Origin: a virus
Taxonomy: Duplodnaviria; Heunggongvirae; Uroviricota; Caudoviricetes
IMG/VR virus record: IMGVR_UViG_2565956710_000004
DNA: 41,214 bases
Direction: 5' to 3' (one strand)
Below are positions 3,428 through 12,789 of this stretch, piece by piece (positions within the stretch are counted from its first letter, which is position 1; every line of letters begins with the position of its first letter). A model generated the notes under the pieces. That model made no database searches, was not told the origin of the DNA, and saw nothing but the letters and a program-made list of their open reading frames with translations. Position numbers and translations under genes: made by a program.

Positions 3428-4209
3428 GCTGCCACCTTCTGTTCAGTGGCTTTTTGTTTCAGGAATCCAAGAGCTTTCACTGCTTCGTCCTGTGTCAGTT
3501 CTGACGATGCACGAATGTCGCGGCGAAATATCTGGGAACAGAGCGGCAATAAGTCGTCATCCCATGTTTTATCCAGGGCGATCAGCAGAGTGTTAATCTC
3601 CTGCATGGTTTCATCGTTAACCGGAGTGATGTCGCGTTCCGGCTGACGTTCTGCAGTGTATGCGGTATTTTCGACAATGCGCTCGGCTTCATCCTTGTCA
3701 TAGATACCAGCAAATCCGAAGGCCAGACGGGCACACTGAATCATAGCTTTATGCCGTAACATCCGTTTGGGATGCGACTGCCACGGTCCGGTGATTTCTC
3801 TGCCTTCGCGAGTTTTGAATGGTTCGCGGCGGCATTCATCCATCCATTCGGTAACGCAGATCGGATGATTACGGTCCTTGCGGTAAATCCGGCATGTACA
3901 GGATTCATTGTCCTGCTCAAAGTCCATGCCATCAAACTGCTGGTTTTCATTGATGATGCGGGACCAGCCATCAACGCCCACCACCGGAACGATGCCGTTC
4001 TGCTTATCAGGGAAGGCGTAAATTTCTTTCGTCCACGGATTAAGGCCGTACTGGTTGGCGACGATCAACAATGCGATGAACTGCGCATCGCTGGCATCAC
4101 CTTTAAATGCCGTCTGGCGAAGAGTGGTGATCAGTTCCTGTGGGTCGACAGAATCCATGCCGACACGTTCAGCCAGCTTCCCTGCCAGCGTTGCGAGTGC
4201 TGTACTCAT
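3424..4209 (-). CDS. bet: Red beta single-strand annealing protein
   Basis: 261 aa; [66 protein letters not shown]... matches lambda Bet; 4-nt overlap with exo as in lambda. Confidence 0.95.
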
Positions 4210-4214
4210 CCGTT

Positions 4215-4511
4215 TTATACCTCTGAATCAATATCAACCTGGTGGTGAGCAATGGTTTCAACCATGTACCGGATGTGTTCTGCCATGCGCTCCTGAAACT
4301 CAACATCGTCATCAAACGCACGGGTAATGGCTTTTTTGCTGGCCCCGCAGCGTTGCAAATGATCGATGCAGAGCGATTCAAACAAATGCTGGGGCAGACC
4401 CTTTTCCAGGTCGTCTGCCAGTTCTGCCTCTTTCTCTTCACGGGCGATCTGCTGGTAGTGACGCGCCCAGCTCTGAGCCTCAAGACGATCCTGAATGTAA
4501 TAAGCGTTCAT
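4215..4511 (-). CDS. gam: Gam (RecBCD inhibitor), short GamS-length form
   Basis: 98 aa [21 protein letters not shown]...[10 protein letters not shown] matches the C-terminal 98 aa of lambda Gam. Upstream in-frame sequence still reads ...FRSSAM like lambda but hits an in-frame TAA at 4566-4568, so the 138-aa long form cannot be made. Confidence 0.9.
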
Positions 4512-4586
4512 GGCTGAACTCCTGAAAATGGCTGTGAAACTATTGCCCGGGAAATGCCAGGCTGATTAGGAAAACAGGAAAGGGGG

Positions 4587-4877
4587 TTAGTGATTCAGGC
4601 CGTTGCCGCGTCCGTCGAGAAAAATTTCCACGAGCAAGTCACGGGTATAAGTGCGCTCGATGCCGCGATGCAGATAAAGCCGTCCGCGTAGATTAGCTGA
4701 TGCAGTCCAGGTACCATCTTTGTGTTTGACCAGCATTCCTGGCATGACCGCACCGCGATTAACGGTCTGCGTTCCGTAATGTTGATGAACCATAAAAACT
4801 CCTGCCCGTAAGCTGGGCTGCTGAACATATAGAGACTTCTGCGCGTATTCAGGCGGTGGATGGCCGCCGGTTGTCAT
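4587..4877 (-). CDS. Hypothetical protein, first ORF downstream of putative pL (96 aa from ATG)
   Basis: Frame-0 minus-strand ORF; the track form starts at a TTG (4995-4997) with no SD, so the ATG at 4875-4877 (GAGG about 10 nt upstream) is preferred. No similarity I can recognise to N, Kil or CIII. Confidence 0.3.
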   Translation of the reverse strand: MTTGGHPPPEYAQKSLYVQQPSLRAGVFMVHQHYGTQTVNRGAVMPGMLVKHKDGTWTASANLRGRLYLHRGIERTYTRDLLVEIFLDGRGNGLNH

Positions 4878-5049
4878 AACTAAGCCGCCTCGTTGAAGCG
4901 ACTGAGGTATGAGGTGTTGAGTTGATTTCAGCTGGTCACACCGACGTTCACGCGTCCGCTTCACCCCTCGCACTCCCCGGAGCCTGCTGAAATTCAAGCT
5001 GCGGATCTAAGCGGTCATCGCAACGGTGAATCAGGTGGTTGCCGTATGA

Positions 5050-5150
5050 TTGTGTTGTTGCGATGAACTTATTTAAAACTATAGTTGTTTTATCGTCAAC
5101 AACATAAGTTGTTTTACTGGTTGTTTTAGATATAACTGGTTGTATTTGGG
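5050..5150 (-). promoter_or_regulatory. Putative OL/pL operator-promoter region
   Basis: Cluster of GTTGTT / AACAAC hexamers (GTTGTT at 5054, 5084, 5108, 5120; AACAAC at 5098), including inverted repeats GTTGTT-N8-AACAAC and AACAAC-ATAA-GTTGTT. The same half-site forms the inverted repeat TGGTTGTT-N7-AACAACCA in the cI/cro intergenic region. Lies between the cassette terminator and the leftward early genes, where OL is expected. Confidence 0.35.
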
Positions 5151-5240
5151 ATGGATTTATTTTGTGACTTGAATCGCATAGCGATAACTGAAGCGAGGTT
5201 GTGGTGGTTTTTTGAACGGTGTGTGTGATGAGGGGAGGGG

Positions 5241-5270
5241 CAAAAGAAAACCCGGCACGGTGGCCGGGTT
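5241..5270 (-). terminator. Rho-independent terminator (bidirectional hairpin) ending the cI-linked cassette
   Basis: Perfect 6-bp GC-rich stem CCCGGC(5251-5256)/GCCGGG(5263-5268), extendable by two A-T pairs, 6-nt loop, T-rich tracts on both sides; 5 nt after the stop of the 316-aa gene. Analogous in position to lambda tIMM after rexB. Confidence 0.6.
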
Positions 5271-5274
5271 GTTT

Positions 5275-6225
5275 TTATAGCTCATTGTAAACAGCAATAG
5301 GCTCAATGAAATACTCATCAGAGTCAGGGGCGCAAAATGTTGACTCCAGATCAAAAAGGCTGTCATTCATATTCCAGACTGCACTGCGAATGCCGTTTAG
5401 TTCACGAGCCTCTGATTCCTGATTACCTTCAGACGTTGATGTACGCGTTATCATCCCTACGACTGTGAATGCAGAGGTCGTTCGACGAGAATATAACTTT
5501 ACAAACATTTCTGGACTGATTTTAAGAAAATCTCTGATTAAGAATGAGGTGAATTTAATATCTTGCATTTTTTGTGATATTTCTATTTCGTCACCATATG
5601 CGTAATCTAAAACAGAAGACAGATGCTCAAAGAATTTTTTCTGATTTGGAGATGTTAAATTATCAAGCTCACTTTTAATTTCTGCTTGTCTTGCCTTGAT
5701 AATATTAAATTCATTGGATTTGGGTTTTATCGATTTCAGCATCGATTCTAGACTTTCTAATTCGTCATTTCGATGAACGAAATTAATAGCATAGTTAGTT
5801 TTACAGAAATTCTTAGCGGTATTTTTTAATTTATTATAGTCATTAAATTGAATTGGGCAGGTGATTTTAACAAAGCAATTAGCCTTAATTTTGTTCGAGT
5901 CGATCGGGGAAGTTATGTTAGACAGAATTCCTCTTTTGCTAAGTTCGTTTTCAAATTTCAGATAATGATAATCATGAGGGTTTAACACTGTTGATATTTT
6001 TTTTGTGTCACTCGTTTTACTTGAACTACTTTTTGTCTTTATTTCGACTGCATCTATATTTGAAAGAGTAGACTCTTTATGCTCCATCGCGGATTGAATT
6101 ACGCCCTCAAATAATTGAGAGCTTAAAGAGTAGACCTTCTCATAATCAATATAAATGATATTTTTTAACTGCATACCAATTCCATTAGTGATATTTAAGT
6201 TGTTCTTTCTTTCTTTCAAAGTCAT
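5275..6225 (-). CDS. Hypothetical 316-aa protein, cargo gene in rexAB position
   Basis: Long ORF in very AT-rich DNA with Lys/Asn/Ile-rich codon usage unlike the flanking phage backbone; same strand as cI; followed directly by the terminator. No catalytic motif recognised. Confidence 0.6.
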   Translation of the reverse strand: MTLKERKNNLNITNGIGMQLKNIIYIDYEKVYSLSSQLFEGVIQSAMEHKESTLSNIDAVEIKTKSSSSKTSDTKKISTVLNPHDYHYLKFENELSKRGILSNITSPIDSNKIKANCFVKITCPIQFNDYNKLKNTAKNFCKTNYAINFVHRNDELESLESMLKSIKPKSNEFNIIKARQAEIKSELDNLTSPNQKKFFEHLSSVLDYAYGDEIEISQKMQDIKFTSFLIRDFLKISPEMFVKLYSRRTTSAFTVVGMITRTSTSEGNQESEARELNGIRSAVWNMNDSLFDLESTFCAPDSDEYFIEPIAVYNEL

Positions 6226-6364
6226 CGCTATTTGACTTTCTGACCCTTTCTATGTGCATTAAAGTTTCCTGTGCATTTTTGAGGTTTTTTCTTGAAAACC
6301 ATGCCAATACAGCAGGTATCACAACAGCTATTATGGATAAAATAGTAATTAAGTACTCCATAAT

Positions 6365-6781
6365 TTACTCCTGCGCCACTACTTTGTTATTGATAATAGC
6401 ACACCTGACTGAATTTTGTCCAATGTATAAGGATATACCACAAGTAATAGCGACTAATATGCGAGTCGTATTCATGTTAAGGATGTTATCAGCCAGCATA
6501 ACAATAATGTAAATTATAGAAAAAAGTACAATGAAAACAATCGATATGGTAGTGTTTATAATAATATTGTTTTCAGTTTGCTTGCTGGGTTGGCCCATTC
6601 CGTAATAAATACTGGATATTTGTACGGCAAAGCCAAAACATATCAACTCAGTTATATTGATCAGCTCTATGTTTTTATTAGTGATGAAATAAGCAATAAA
6701 TCTAATAAAGATAGGGATTGCTCCAATGATTACTGTTCCGCACCACCACTTGAAATAATCACTATGAATATTATGTTGCAT
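6365..6781 (-). CDS. Hypothetical 4-TM integral membrane protein, cargo gene immediately downstream of cI
   Basis: 138 aa, ATG at 6779-6781, 48 bp after the cI stop. Four hydrophobic segments (about residues 12-33, 43-62, 74-97, 107-122). Size and topology are reminiscent of RexB (144 aa, 4 TM), but there is no sequence similarity I can assert. Confidence 0.6.
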   Translation of the reverse strand: MQHNIHSDYFKWWCGTVIIGAIPIFIRFIAYFITNKNIELINITELICFGFAVQISSIYYGMGQPSKQTENNIIINTTISIVFIVLFSIIYIIVMLADNILNMNTTRILVAITCGISLYIGQNSVRCAIINNKVVAQE

Positions 6782-6829
6782 TATATAAACTCAATATTTA
6801 ATTAATTTAAAGTTTCATAAGTTCCATTT

Positions 6830-7519
6830 TTACCCATGCTTCCTGTACGTCTGCGGCATGCTCCCGATGACTTTCCCGAAAATGAATACCCGGTTCATCT
6901 CGTCTTTCTCGATCGGGTCCCACGGTGAGTAACTCTTGTTATCAGAGATAACGAGCAGCTTATCCTTCATCATTTGCAGGCGCTTTACATGGGCTGTGTC
7001 GTCGTACAGAAACGCATAGATACCATCACCGTCGAAAGATTTAACCGTGATATCAACGAACAGAAGATCACCTGGTTCGATCGTTCCTGACATGCTGTCA
7101 CCGCGTACGTTAATGATGCGGATATTTTCTGCCTTCCTGCCATCGAACATGTGACGAGCATCGTCAAACGAGTACTCAACCGAGCGTAGAACTTCTACAA
7201 ACTCACGGTTGATGACTCCCGGCCCGGCACTCACTTCTATATCAAGAACGTCAATCTTAAAGTATTTGGAATGGCTGACAGTGGATTGTATTGGTTGCAC
7301 TGTACTGTCTGACATATTTCCAACGCCAGAAGATAACCATTCTGCGCGCACACCCAAAGCGTTCGCGATCTCCACGATTTTAGTTGTTTGGTTAGCTTTC
7401 CCTGTTTCGATTTTCTGAATAGCAGCTTGGCTAACCCCGACCAAATCCCCAAGCGCCTTTTGTGTAAGGCCTCGCGCTAATCTGGCTTCTTTAAGTCTTT
7501 CTGAGAGTGTTGTTTTCAT
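6830..7519 (-). CDS. cI: CI-type prophage repressor (N-terminal HTH, C-terminal S24 LexA-like autopeptidase)
   Basis: Start MKTTLSERLKEARLARGLTQKALGDLVGVSQAAIQKIE (HTH_XRE pattern). C-terminal ...VRGDSMSGTIEPGDLLFVD... and ...HVKRL... give the Ser/Lys dyad of S24 peptidases. ATG at 7517-7519 has no SD, consistent with a leaderless pRM transcript as in lambda. The track extension to 7585 runs through the operators and is rejected. Confidence 0.85.
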   Translation of the reverse strand: MKTTLSERLKEARLARGLTQKALGDLVGVSQAAIQKIETGKANQTTKIVEIANALGVRAEWLSSGVGNMSDSTVQPIQSTVSHSKYFKIDVLDIEVSAGPGVINREFVEVLRSVEYSFDDARHMFDGRKAENIRIINVRGDSMSGTIEPGDLLFVDITVKSFDGDGIYAFLYDDTAHVKRLQMMKDKLLVISDNKSYSPWDPIEKDEMNRVFIFGKVIGSMPQTYRKHG

Positions 7520-7623
7520 AGTCCAAATGTACAACCAAGGTTTTATTTCATCAAACGAAAATGGTTGTTGACTAAAAACAACCATAGTTTTAACCTTGAT
7601 TCAAATTAACCACGGAGGTTGTT
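7520..7623. promoter_or_regulatory. OR operator / divergent pRM-pR promoter region
   Basis: Intergenic region between divergent cI and cro. Inverted repeat TGGTTGTT-GACTAAA-AACAACCA (7562-7584), near-palindromes AACCAAGGTT and AACCTTGATT, TTGACT (7568-7573) as candidate -35, GGAGG SD before cro. Confidence 0.6.
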
Positions 7624-7854
7624 ATGAACCCAGCTATCAAAACAGCGATCAATATCGTTGGTTCACAAAAGAAACTGGGCGCTGCCTGCGAAGTTTCACA
7701 GCAGGCCGTCTATAAGTGGCTTCACAACAAAGCAAAGGTATCCCCTGAACATGTCGGCAGCATTGTTACGGCTACTGGTGGAGTAGTGAAGGCATACCAG
7801 ATTCGCCCGGATCTTCCGAAGTTGTTTCCACACACCGAAAAGAACGCAGCTTAA
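7624..7854 (+). CDS. cro: Cro-like repressor (YdaS/Cro HTH family)
   Basis: 76-aa HTH protein divergent from cI with strong SD; core ...GSQKKLGAACEVSQQAVYKWLHNKAKVS... has the YdaS/Cro helix-turn-helix pattern. Confidence 0.75.
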   Translation: MNPAIKTAINIVGSQKKLGAACEVSQQAVYKWLHNKAKVSPEHVGSIVTATGGVVKAYQIRPDLPKLFPHTEKNAA

Positions 7855-7923
7855 ATTTCCATTTCACGCTCTTTAACAATAAGCAATCAACTTAACAGTC
7901 AATTCAAACTAAAGGAGTCAATT

Positions 7924-8463
7924 ATGCAACCACTTACATACCAACAGACTAGCGGATTTACCCCGACTGCGGTGATAAATCGTTCTCAAACAAAACAGGC
8001 GCTAGGCCACGAAAAAATCCGTGATGCCGTTCGCGCCTGGTCGGCTGCAGATAATCAGGATGTTGTTGCCGCACTCATTGTGAATGAGTATCGGGTGCAG
8101 GGCGGCGGCACCATCGATTTCCCTGATGATGTCAGCCGTGCACGCCAGAAGCTGTTCCGCTTCCTCGATAACAAATTCGATTCTGAAAAATACCGAAATA
8201 ACGTGCGTGAACTGACCCCGGCAATTCTGGCGGTACTACCGCTGGAATATCGCGGCCACCTGGTTGAGCAGGATAGCTTCATGGCTCGGCTGGCTGAAAT
8301 GGAAAAGGAACTCAGTGAGGCAAAACAGGCTGTCATTCTCAACGCACCACGCCACCAGAAACTGAAGGAGATGAGTGAAGGCATTGTGTCGATGTTTCGT
8401 GTGGACCCGGATCTGGCTGGTCCACTGATGGCGATGGTCACCACCATGCTGGGGGCAATATGA
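7924..8463 (+). CDS. YdaT-family protein (CII-position regulator)
   Basis: 179 aa immediately after cro with AGGAG SD. Segments EYRVQGGG and TPAILAVLPLEYRGHL resemble recalled E. coli Rac YdaT (EYLRQGGG, IPAILAILPRELRHRL). Occupies the cII slot. Confidence 0.6.
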   Translation: MQPLTYQQTSGFTPTAVINRSQTKQALGHEKIRDAVRAWSAADNQDVVAALIVNEYRVQGGGTIDFPDDVSRARQKLFRFLDNKFDSEKYRNNVRELTPAILAVLPLEYRGHLVEQDSFMARLAEMEKELSEAKQAVILNAPRHQKLKEMSEGIVSMFRVDPDLAGPLMAMVTTMLGAI

Positions 8464-8549
8464 CAGGTTCAGAAATGGCGAAAGCCGGTCTGCGCGAACA
8501 GAACCGACTTTCAGGTGCAAATCGTAACACACTCATTGCGGGAGGAATT

Positions 8550-10309: not shown

Positions 10310-11956
10310 ATGTGTGAAACCTATATTTTTAGGTTCCGTGACCTAGGAAAAAGTGAAGGATTTACCATCGAGCAACACAATAAAATTGCTCGCCAAGAAG
10401 GGAATGTTTGGTGGGGGTGGTGGGCTAAATCTGGTGAGCGTTTCCCATCACTGGAACTAAAAAATGCGGCAGAAAAAAATAAACAAATATATTTTTTTGA
10501 TTCAGGGCGGCTTAAATTTTATACCGCTGTATTAAAGGATACTTGCTCGTCAGCTTTAGGGGATATAAAAAAGCAATCTCCTAAGGATGGTCGCAGAACC
10601 CCAGCATATTATAATGAGAATGAGTTGCTGGGATGGTTAAATGTTTCTGAGATTACAGAAATTGATGCTTGTGATATCCTCAAAAAATTCACATATATTC
10701 CATTGGATGCATTGTTTGCAGGTAATAAAGATTTAGATGAGCAACTTTTCAACAAAATTGTCTTTTCTTCAGCTGAATTAAAAAAACAAGATAGAACTAT
10801 TTGGAAGATTAGACCTGCAAATGATAAAGATTTACAGCATGAGTCATTAGCATCTCATTATGTTCCTTATAATTTCAGTCGGAAGTATAGCCAAAAAAAA
10901 GGGGAGTTTATAATTTGGCTTTCGGATATTCATTTTGATGGCGGAAATGGGAAACATGCATTTCCGACACAAGATAATGATCAGCTAAAATGTTTATCCT
11001 CTCGAGTGGTGGAGTTGGCTGGAAAATATAATAATGGGAGTAAATGTGCTGGGTTGGCTATTTCAGGTGATTTGACGTGGCAGTCACAGAAAGAGGGATT
11101 CGAGCAAGCTTTGAATTTTATCAAAGATGTTAGTTCTTCTCTTAGCCTGACAACGGATGATATAATTATTTGTCCTGGGAATCACGATGTAGGTCTGGTT
11201 TCTAAAGATGAGTACTTTAAAATCGTGGGTAAGCCTGTAACGGATAAACCATGGAAAATTCTGGCGGAAAACTACCATAGAGAAAGTAAACTTAATTATA
11301 TAAAATTTTATCGAGATTTTTTTCAAAGGGAACCTGAAGAAAATTTATCACAAGGAAGGAAATTTTTACTAGGTGGCCATAAAGTTGTTGAAATAGCCGC
11401 ATTGAACTCATGCGTATTACAACAAGTAAAAGATTCATTTTTGGGCATGGGATTTGTCGGTGAGCAACAACTCAGTGATGTTGCAAAATCTATGGGATGG
11501 ATGAATGATAGCGGAGGAGATATACTCAAAAAGAAAGGTGTTATAAGAATTGCTATGCTTCACCATCACCTAACTTCTATTAATGAAGTTGAAGATGCCT
11601 ATCTTGATTCAAGATATAGTGTAACATTAGATGCAGAGCGATTATTACGTTGGGTAGTAAGGCATAAAGTTGATTATATTCTGCATGGTCATATGCACAG
11701 AAGTAGTTCTATTACAATAACAAAAAAACTATCTCCGTTAGAACCAGTGACGGATTCAAATCCTGAACATACATTCCAAATTGTTTCTTTGGGAAGTTCA
11801 GGAGTTGTTAGTTCGGAATTGCCAAGTCAGGATTGTGCTAACTATGCATGCGTACTGGATTTTTCTGGCGAAAAGCTAACTTTTAATTTTTTCAAGCTTG
11901 ATAAACAGAGCGGAGAAAAAGTGGCGGCTACTTATATTGTTGAAGGTTTATTATGA
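10310..11956 (+). CDS. Calcineurin-like metallophosphoesterase with unknown about 190-aa N-terminal domain (cargo gene)
   Basis: 548 aa, ATG preceded by GAGGA. Full set of metallophosphoesterase motifs in order: D-x-H (WLSDIHFDGGNG), GD (ISGDLTW), GNHD (CPGNHDVG), H (MLHHHL), GHxH (LHGHMH). Lacks the GDxHG / GDxVDRG / GNHE signature of PPP-type Ser/Thr phosphatases such as lambda NinI. AT-rich codon usage. Confidence 0.75.
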   Translation: MCETYIFRFRDLGKSEGFTIEQHNKIARQEGNVWWGWWAKSGERFPSLELKNAAEKNKQIYFFDSGRLKFYTAVLKDTCSSALGDIKKQSPKDGRRTPAYYNENELLGWLNVSEITEIDACDILKKFTYIPLDALFAGNKDLDEQLFNKIVFSSAELKKQDRTIWKIRPANDKDLQHESLASHYVPYNFSRKYSQKKGEFIIWLSDIHFDGGNGKHAFPTQDNDQLKCLSSRVVELAGKYNNGSKCAGLAISGDLTWQSQKEGFEQALNFIKDVSSSLSLTTDDIIICPGNHDVGLVSKDEYFKIVGKPVTDKPWKILAENYHRESKLNYIKFYRDFFQREPEENLSQGRKFLLGGHKVVEIAALNSCVLQQVKDSFLGMGFVGEQQLSDVAKSMGWMNDSGGDILKKKGVIRIAMLHHHLTSINEVEDAYLDSRYSVTLDAERLLRWVVRHKVDYILHGHMHRSSSITITKKLSPLEPVTDSNPEHTFQIVSLGSSGVVSSELPSQDCANYACVLDFSGEKLTFNFFKLDKQSGEKVAATYIVEGLL

Positions 11957-12789
11957 AATTACTTATTACTGATTTGGATAATACACTGTACGATTGGGTG
12001 AGTTTTTACTCCCAGTCATTTAGTGCCATGGCAGAGCAATTATCTAAGGATATTGATGTGCCTTTGGATACGCTCCTGTCAGAATATAAAACAATTCATC
12101 AGAAGTTTGGTAACTCAGAAAAACCATTTGCTACTTTAGAGCTACCATCTGTGATATCTTACTTTGGAACTAATGATAAAACGATTTTGCAGGAAAGACT
12201 TACTAATGTTTTTCAGGCGTTTAGCACAAAACGTAACCAGACATTAATGTTGTATCCTACTGTAAAAGAAACGCTGGAATTATTGAAGAAACGGGGGGTA
12301 AAAATCGTAGGGCATACTGAAGCTTTGGAGTTTAATTCTTTATATCGTCTGAATAAGCTTGGTATAATTGATTTTTTTGATCATCTTTATACATTAGAAG
12401 ATATTCATAATATCCACCCGAATCCCAAAAATGCAAAAAAAATACCTGTGAAGGATGACTTTGTAATTAGATTGTCCTGCGCTGAGTCAAAGCCAAACCC
12501 TAAATTGCTTGAGCACATATGTTCTTTTGAAGGAGTTAGTGTTGAAGATGCAGTATACATTGGCGATTCTATAACTAAAGATATGTCCATGGCTAAAGCT
12601 GTGGGGGTTACTGCTGTTTGGGCTAATTATGGGCGACAGTTTTCACCTGAATTGTGGAAAGTTTTAGTGAAAATCACACACTGGAAAGATGCAGATGTGG
12701 AGAGGGAGGAACAACTTAGAAAAGCATTCTCCAATGTTAGACCTGATTATGTTGTTAATAGTTTTTCAGAGCTGCTGAATTTGAAATGA
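11953..12789 (+). CDS. HAD-superfamily hydrolase (phosphatase-type motifs) (cargo gene)
   Basis: 278 aa; start overlaps the upstream stop (ATGA). HAD motif I DLDNTL (residues 7-12, DxDxT), motif III Lys in ESKPNP, motif IV GDSITKD (GDxxxD). Confidence 0.75.
   Translation: MKLLITDLDNTLYDWVSFYSQSFSAMAEQLSKDIDVPLDTLLSEYKTIHQKFGNSEKPFATLELPSVISYFGTNDKTILQERLTNVFQAFSTKRNQTLMLYPTVKETLELLKKRGVKIVGHTEALEFNSLYRLNKLGIIDFFDHLYTLEDIHNIHPNPKNAKKIPVKDDFVIRLSCAESKPNPKLLEHICSFEGVSVEDAVYIGDSITKDMSMAKAVGVTAVWANYGRQFSPELWKVLVKITHWKDADVEREEQLRKAFSNVRPDYVVNSFSELLNLK

Follow-up and report, generated by a model that had tools for sequence, protein, structure and literature searches.

The window analysed here, a 41,214-nt stretch of Caudoviricetes DNA (IMG/VR virus record IMGVR_UViG_2565956710_000004), is a nearly complete lambdoid prophage with int, exo/bet/gam, kil, cI, cro, O/P, ren and lysis and morphogenesis genes. 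Between its cI-type repressor gene and an intrinsic terminator, in the slot that holds rexAB in lambda, lie three genes that we call A, B and C. A and B are predicted membrane proteins with four and one transmembrane (TM) segments, respectively, and C is a soluble protein assigned to the DUF6414 family, to which DolA of the Dodola defence system belongs. The trio is probably an undescribed relative of DolA-based systems, and we propose that it most likely serves the lysogen in defence against other phages. The locus has the following features, with lengths in amino acids (aa) and open reading frames abbreviated as ORFs:

6365-6781, minus strand: gene A, 138 aa, predicted four-TM inner-membrane protein (AlphaFold2 model, charge counts, family alignment)
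6185-6361, minus strand: gene B, 58 aa, predicted one-TM bitopic membrane protein (ORF, Shine-Dalgarno sequence, PGAP annotation, hidden Markov model (HMM))
5275-6174, minus strand: gene C, 299 aa, soluble DUF6414 protein of the DolA family (Pfam; the ORF is open to 6225)
5272-6829, no strand: exchangeable cassette of 1558 bp, GC content 0.326 (homology breaks against the JL05, AR_0369 and 13TMH22 prophages)
5249-5270, minus strand: intrinsic terminator that would close the cI-A-B-C unit, equivalent to lambda tImm (terminator scan)
6782-6829, minus strand: AT-rich spacer of 48 nt, the right-hand edge of the cassette (sequence, terminator scan, homology break at 6830)
6830-7519, minus strand: cI-type repressor gene with HTH_3 and Peptidase_S24 domains (Pfam, PHROG, PGAP)
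7520-7623, no strand: oR/pRM/pR region between cI and cro, pRM being the presumed lysogen promoter of cI-A-B-C
about 5060-5140, no strand: oL/pL-like region (k-mer comparison with 7500-7640)

The three genes and their products

An initial annotation, made from the sequence alone, had described a pair of ORFs, of 138 and 316 aa, co-oriented with cI. Both are present on the minus strand, but they do not form a pair, as gene B lies between them. The larger product, rightly described as soluble, is most likely 299 aa long: its ORF of 316 aa runs from 6225, and we place the start at Met18 (6174) because the Pfam match opens at residue 20 of the long ORF, the homologues without exception begin at the equivalent of Met18, and PGAP makes the same call in the near-identical prophage of E. 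coli NADC1036. The 48-nt gap that separates A from the cI stop codon was correctly placed. The hairpin terminator was also correctly recognised, with a stem of 8 bp (six G-C pairs) followed by a T-run, but the stem spans 5249-5270 and not 5241-5270. Given a per-codon stop probability of 0.078, chance would leave frames of 138 and 299 codons open with probabilities of 1e-5 and 3e-11. For the 58 codons of B the figure is 0.009, and comparative evidence is therefore needed for this gene.

C matches Pfam DUF6414 (PF19952) across the entire profile (positions 1-283 of 283; E 1.1e-17; 65 bits against a cut-off of 25). By this match C is a member of the DolA family, and the description of the large protein as being of unknown family has to be replaced. 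C lacks any hydrophobic segment (maximum Kyte-Doolittle hydropathy 0.63) and has an isoelectric point (pI) of 5.85; all 20 of 20 members are acidic (pI 4.8-5.9). Its AlphaFold2 model (predicted local distance difference test (pLDDT) 77.9, predicted template modelling score 0.67) shows a beta-barrel to which strands from the N-terminal, central and C-terminal parts all contribute; it also has long helical hairpins, and residues 24-63 form a disordered loop rich in Ser, Lys and Glu. Invariant residues fall in an N-terminal motif, IYxDxEKxYSLSSQLFEG, and, towards the C-terminus, in YSR and ESTF motifs, none of which equals a recognised catalytic signature. Matches to AbiEi (E about 0.01) lay in a low-confidence region and were judged to be noise. 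The DUF6414 family is real but uncommon, with 929 representative clusters at E <= 1e-3 and 229 at E <= 1e-30 among 1.84 billion. Profile searches with C were read from the best 120-150 matches, all of them strong and full-length to the trio-derived profile (E <= 1e-92; E <= 4e-50).

A second DUF6414 form occupies the identical slot in E. coli 13TMH22 (NZ_CP019256, locus 4099-5098), between the prophage repressor gene, which it follows directly, and the same conserved terminator. Its DUF6414 protein (WP_053265961.1, 285 aa, Pfam 2e-10) shares with C an N-terminal motif, here YIDxxxVxSLxxQL, but is very distant from it (profile E 6e-9, N-terminal half only). The two forms also differ in their partners: the 13TMH22 gene overlaps an upstream 59-aa ORF whose product is soluble and highly charged, and membrane proteins, the 4-TM one included, are absent from this form. 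Matches equivalent to the 13TMH22 DUF6414 form turned up in at least five complete E. coli genomes.

The AlphaFold2 model of A consists of four helices (residues 2-33, 43-61, 67-96 and 103-137; pLDDT 73). Across 20 diverse homologues, Lys plus Arg residues number 2.1-2.6 per segment in the N-terminus, loop 2 and the C-terminus, and 0.65-1.0 in loops 1 and 3. Model and charges fit an N-in/C-in protein with four TM helices, and the initial annotation was right to expect membrane insertion of this kind. In the family alignment Arg27 (TM1) and Ser117 (TM4) are invariant, W12, T16, G20, P23, G50 and S80 are nearly so, and a conserved acidic residue, E45 in this protein, opens TM2. The invariant Arg in TM1 and the conserved acidic residues at the start of TM2 would be compatible with a path for ions or a gating contact. 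Selection on A is strongly purifying, with nonsynonymous polymorphism (pN) at 0.18 against synonymous polymorphism (pS) at 0.74. Sequence and profile searches returned no relative of A in Pfam, NCBIfam, PADLOC, PHROGs or the PDB sequences. Structure predictions and fold searches had been suggested as a check: models were obtained of A as four helices and of C as a barrel, but the fold search with A gave designed or generic helical bundles, which are uninformative, and C had no PDB match either by Foldseek (best E 0.18) or by sequence profile.

B starts 3 nt past the A stop codon, and a perfect AGGAG Shine-Dalgarno sequence lies 7 nt upstream of the start, within the last codons of A. In the NADC1036 prophage it is annotated by PGAP (WP_001557807.1). 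The protein has a TM helix of ~18 residues (about 4-21), is nearly uncharged before the helix and ends in a tail rich in Lys and Arg (10 of 37 residues), from which an N-out/C-in topology with a basic cytoplasmic tail is predicted. The sequence of B has drifted (pN 0.36-0.51), but its occurrence, place and architecture stay the same. No significant match to B was found in Pfam, NCBIfam, PADLOC or PHROGs, and the weak ones to KwaA (E 0.06, 13 bits against a cut-off of 100), holin and LysB were rejected as spurious. Judged by these searches, A and B appear to be a new pair of membrane proteins without a described family.

A recurrent unit and an exchangeable cassette

A, B and C form one unit in about 94 loci from several phyla, 44 of them non-redundant after dereplication to C proteins at most 85% identical. 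The survey of cI-downstream and related loci that accompanied the initial annotation as a proposed check therefore finds that the cassette does recur, with three genes. Among C homologues of 26-66% identity, each locus traced has upstream of C an ORF of ~135 aa with four TM segments and one of 42-64 aa with one TM segment, and stop-start overlaps between the genes occur in several distant loci. By HMM, A lies upstream of C in 51 of 51 IMG/VR contigs and B in 50 of 51. An ORF scan of 26 GTDB genomes from several phyla found both A and B preceding C in every one (26/26); these include Psychrobacter, Halomonas/Vreelandella, Methylobacter, Oceanospirillum, Photobacterium and Nitrosomonas, as well as Bacteriovorax, Thermodesulfobacteriota, Bacteroidales/Prevotella and a metagenome-assembled genome of Lachnospiraceae. 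The trio is also complete in all Enterobacterales prophage loci and distant metagenome loci checked. These collection scans used peptide patterns of C's own subfamily, and the organisation of other DUF6414 branches lies outside their reach; the plasmid collection contained no C homologue. Around the 44 non-redundant loci no flanking family occurs more than eight times, and those that come nearest are phage backbone genes; there is no conserved fourth partner and no ClpB-like gene. In every locus examined the GC content of the trio (0.29-0.39) is below that of its surroundings (0.35-0.48).

In the window, the AT-rich and Lys/Asn/Ile-heavy character ascribed to this DNA is borne out, with a GC content of 0.326 against 0.47 in cI and 0.50-0.52 in neighbouring genes, and with Lys, Asn, Ile, Phe and Tyr making up 0.33-0.45 of the cassette proteins against 0.25 of cI. 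A sister prophage in E. coli JL05 has the very same cI protein, and DNA identity is 96-97% to either side of the cassette; its homology ends at 5271 and restarts at 6830, and a DUF3800 gene lies in between. When the JL05, AR_0369 and 13TMH22 prophages are taken together, homology stops at 5271-5280 and resumes at 6826-6830. Other relatives have the same boundaries and other cargo, either ImmA/IrrE plus DUF4411 or a different DUF6414 protein. Of 5426 complete E. coli genomes, 1095 have the terminator stretch (5200-5280) at 90-97% conservation, beside differing cargoes, and the terminator is thus backbone sequence and not cargo. The cassette itself was found in one of the 5426. The comparison supports the earlier suggestion that the genes are horizontally acquired cargo, and shows that A-B-C is one of several exchangeable occupants of the lambda rexAB slot. 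It also documents the cI-to-terminator slot of lambdoid phages as a hotspot of cargo exchange with boundaries exact to the base.

The trio is found in lysogeny operons of several kinds. It follows S24-type cI genes of several immunity types in E. coli, Buttiauxella, Pantoea and Klebsiella, and a 127-aa repressor with a helix-turn-helix (HTH) domain only in Klebsiella pasteurii. In Vibrio phage 10N.286.54.E4_PE001 it lies between a 186-type CI gene and int, with gaps of 10 nt from CI to A and 14 nt from C to int, which places it within the cI-int lysogenic operon. The same CI-to-integrase interval of 186/P2-like Vibrio-type contigs holds, in different phages, the trio plus KAP NTPase, AAA_21/AAA_15 ATPase or Schlafen AlbA_2 genes. 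This region of 186-like phages, from cI to int, is documented as a second kind of exchange hotspot. Outside prophages, genes next to the trio encode, for example, HsdR, an N6 methylase, PIN_8, two Fic proteins and a protein with a RelA/SpoT domain (toxSAS).

A second AT-rich cargo (GC about 0.35) is present elsewhere in the window, at 10310-12789 on the plus strand, after the replication genes; the corresponding slot in NADC1036 comes after ren. The cargo encodes a 548-aa protein with PUA-like and calcineurin-like metallophosphoesterase domains and, overlapping it, a 278-aa HAD-family hydrolase that matches the PADLOC 'Hydrolase' model PDLC03008 (4.5e-57). NADC1036 has an AAA ATPase and RloB at the equivalent position, and this difference makes the slot another swap hotspot; the gene pair is possibly another defence pair.

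With regard to transcription, the order of elements in the window (oR/pRM, cI, cassette, terminator, oL/pL) is that of lambda cI-rexA-rexB-oL. The oL/pL-like region has AACAAC..GTTGTT operator-like repeats and a TTGACG -35 element, both in common with oR by k-mer comparison, and since these repeats sit left of the terminator the cassette is part of the immunity region, with cI on one side and oL/pL on the other. The cI-like ORF is open to 7585, with a likely start at Met23 (7519) that gives 229 aa, the length that PGAP calls for cI in NADC1036 (WP_000858975.1); its domains score 6.5e-13 (HTH_3) and 1.5e-18 (Peptidase_S24) in Pfam and 4e-73 against PHROG 4. A 'terminator-like' hairpin at 7561-7585, at the 5' end of the long cI ORF, is the oR operator palindrome ATGGTTGTT...AACAACCAT. 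No terminator-like site was detected by the scan of the 48-nt spacer between cI and A, and cI, A, B and C would be co-transcribed from pRM in the lysogen. A promoter scan gave fewer promoter-like sites than the shuffle expectation (6 against 8.8), and so no promoter is claimed from it. We note one such site on the minus strand at 6393-6422, in the 3' end of gene A and upstream of B and C (TGGACA, 18 nt, TG-TATTAT; 10/12 matches). In lambda, pLit drives rexB alone; the site recalls this promoter and may be a chance occurrence, the promoter-like count of the region being under the shuffle expectation. An Rfam scan of 4000-8500 revealed neither a put-like element nor any other RNA family. Between the pL-like region and kil (4793-5060) the annotation has no gene for an N-type antiterminator, and the long ORF that contains kil (4587-4997, minus strand) has an arginine-rich start (MNFSRLRGVRGVKRTRERR) resembling the arginine-rich motif of N proteins.

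Proposed function and its alternatives

DUF6414 is identified as the DolA component of Dodola in the DefensePredictor supplementary table and in a review, and papers citing Millman et al. (2022) describe the system as DolA plus the ClpB-like DolB, a validated defence active against SPP1 and broad-spectrum in S. thermophilus (10.1101/2024.10.26.620412, PMC11514479, PMC12322248). Together with the placement in lysogenic operons, the exchange at hotspots and the gene neighbourhood, this family membership makes it likely that the trio is anti-phage, by superinfection exclusion or abortive infection. The fuller account that we favour, and consider reasonably probable, is that the trio is a self-contained, lysogen-expressed and membrane-coupled module that protects the lysogen from superinfection by a docking mechanism. 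The trio would be transcribed with the repressor in the lysogen, A and B would form an inner-membrane complex, and C would dock at its cytoplasmic face on the basic tail of B and on three positively charged parts of A, namely its N-terminus, loop 2 and C-terminus. The charges are complementary, C being acidic, the tails of B basic and the cytoplasmic segments of A rich in Lys and Arg. C would be the infection sensor or adaptor, a role proposed because it is the protein common to all DUF6414 systems, and the effector part would fall to the variable partners, which are a ClpB-like ATPase in Dodola and the A/B membrane module in the trio. Upon infection, A and B might permeabilise or depolarise the membrane, a Rex-like logic without Rex homology.

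The assignment of C as sensor and A/B as effector is tentative, and we give it somewhat less than an even chance; it draws on the constant core and variable partners, the charge complementarity, the conserved charges that A has within the membrane and the existence of TM effectors elsewhere as a precedent. The occurrence of three partner sets around one core suggests that DUF6414 is the constant element and that the partners are interchangeable outputs or inputs. A broader and more doubtful extension is that DUF6414 could be a general infection sensor or adaptor for swappable outputs, namely the ClpB-like unfoldase, the small soluble protein of 13TMH22 and the 4-TM plus 1-TM effector of the trio. 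On that reading, A and B would be a new family of phage-triggered, membrane-disrupting effectors, which in many temperate phages of different phyla would take the place that Rex has in lambda.

A number of points weigh against this proposal. The mechanism and abortive-infection status of Dodola are listed as unknown in the literature consulted, and homology of C consequently indicates a class of phenotype and not a mechanism. No model of the PADLOC copy used (PADLOC-DB v2) matches A, B or C, the structural matches of A and B are generic helical bundles, and we found no paper that describes the trio or gives it an experimental phenotype. Co-transcription with cI from pRM is argued from spacing and from the absence of a terminator only. 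The association with defence islands comes from ten hand-picked neighbours, nine with defence-associated domains and one without a match, and is for that reason indicative and not statistical.

A rival reading is the opposite wiring, as in Kiwa or Zorya, in which A and B would be an envelope sensor of attachment, DNA injection or membrane perturbation that activates or releases C. C could then be a cytosolic effector, for example an oligonucleotide/oligosaccharide-binding (OB)-like barrel that binds phage nucleic acid or a replication or recombination protein. We regard this as unlikely, though as the strongest of the alternatives: C is uniformly acidic and has no nuclease or NTPase motif, its OB matches are to subunits that mediate protein-protein interaction (Ten1, RPA14), and neither A nor C resembles its Kiwa counterpart, KwaA or KwaB. 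Another possibility is that the trio is not primarily anti-phage and is instead an addiction or toxin-antitoxin-like element, in which toxin B is neutralised by A and/or C, or a lysogenic conversion function of another type such as envelope modification or stress tolerance. B does resemble a small membrane toxin in its N-terminal TM helix and basic tail, the cassette is tightly linked and mobile, repressor-adjacent slots also hold non-defence morons, and the trio has no known phenotype. However, the only characterised system of C's family is anti-phage and the neighbours are overwhelmingly defence genes; no signature of the 4-TM flippase family GtrA (PF04138, E <= 0.1), which works with a glycosyltransferase partner in lysogenic conversion, or of another transporter or enzyme was found in 20 A-family members, and C is not a glycosyltransferase. 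Toxin-antitoxin modules and defence are, moreover, not mutually exclusive, and we consider a primarily non-defensive role improbable.

Two further explanations would assign the trio to a system already described. One is a highly diverged RexAB in which C is RexA and A is RexB with the order inverted; it has in its favour the shared slot, the similar sizes and the four TM segments of both membrane partners, but as a homology it is refuted within the reach of sequence methods, and we think it very improbable. The other is canonical Dodola, DolA plus DolB, to which the DUF6414 match of C points. This is ruled out by gene content, the operon between cI and the terminator holding A, B and C only: there is no ClpB-like or AAA+ gene in it, no flanking family is conserved in the 44 non-redundant loci and PADLOC gives no Dol match. 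Of all the explanations it is the one to which we attach least credence.

Comparison with known systems

The initial annotation had proposed a RexAB-analogous exclusion module. An exclusion role is plausible, in view of the DolA family and the lysogeny and defence contexts, but the link to Rex is one of position and architecture. The trio and rexAB share the slot downstream of cI on the same strand, upstream of the terminator and oL/pL, and both combine a soluble protein of ~280-300 aa (RexA 279 aa, C 299 aa) with a 4-TM protein of ~140 aa (RexB 144 aa, A 138 aa), with presumed expression from pRM in the lysogen. They differ in that the gene order of the trio is inverted, the small bitopic protein B is additional, and A-B-C occurs in Bacteroidales, Bdellovibrionota, Thermodesulfobacteriota and other groups. 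The absence of sequence similarity, already remarked upon in the annotation, was upheld: hhalign gave probabilities of 0.3% for A with RexB and 0.1% for C with RexA, and the cassette proteins have no Pfam match to RexA or RexB (PF15968). The likeness to RexAB is therefore, on this comparison, one of position, component sizes and soluble-plus-4-TM architecture only.

Kiwa is similar in that a protein of ~4 TM segments is encoded first and a soluble DUF-family protein of ~300 aa after it, in a small stand-alone operon. The trio differs from it in having the third gene, B. A has no match to the NCBIfam KwaA model (NF041622), and C matches DUF6414 only, with no match to the DUF4868 domain of KwaB.

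The closest comparison is with Dodola. C has the DUF6414 domain that defines DolA, and the trio is likewise compact, mobile and found in defence contexts. In place of the ClpB-like DolB, however, it has two obligatory membrane proteins, A with four TM segments and B with one, and it is located in prophage lysogeny operons. A Dol match in PADLOC was obtained at E <= 1 neither for C nor for five other members of its subfamily nor for more distant DUF6414 proteins, a negative that depends on the breadth of the DolA model and on its presence in the copy used. As dolB is absent and the members tested have no PADLOC Dol match, we do not file the trio as Dodola. Defence finders and gene callers overlook it alike, the former through the lack of a PADLOC match and the latter because A or B is often uncalled: PGAP leaves A unannotated in NADC1036, gene calls for Buttiauxella lack A as well, and those for Klebsiella/Raoultella loci lack B. 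With the small membrane genes so often missing, the three-gene architecture is invisible in standard annotations. We suggest that the trio is a distinct architecture, with membrane partners, built on the same core protein as Dodola, and probably an undescribed DolA relative. It puts a DolA-type protein with simple membrane partners into an E. coli lambdoid prophage, the setting in which Rex biology was worked out, so that the DUF6414 family becomes testable by standard coliphage genetics and the unsolved mechanism of Dodola gains a genetically tractable entry point.

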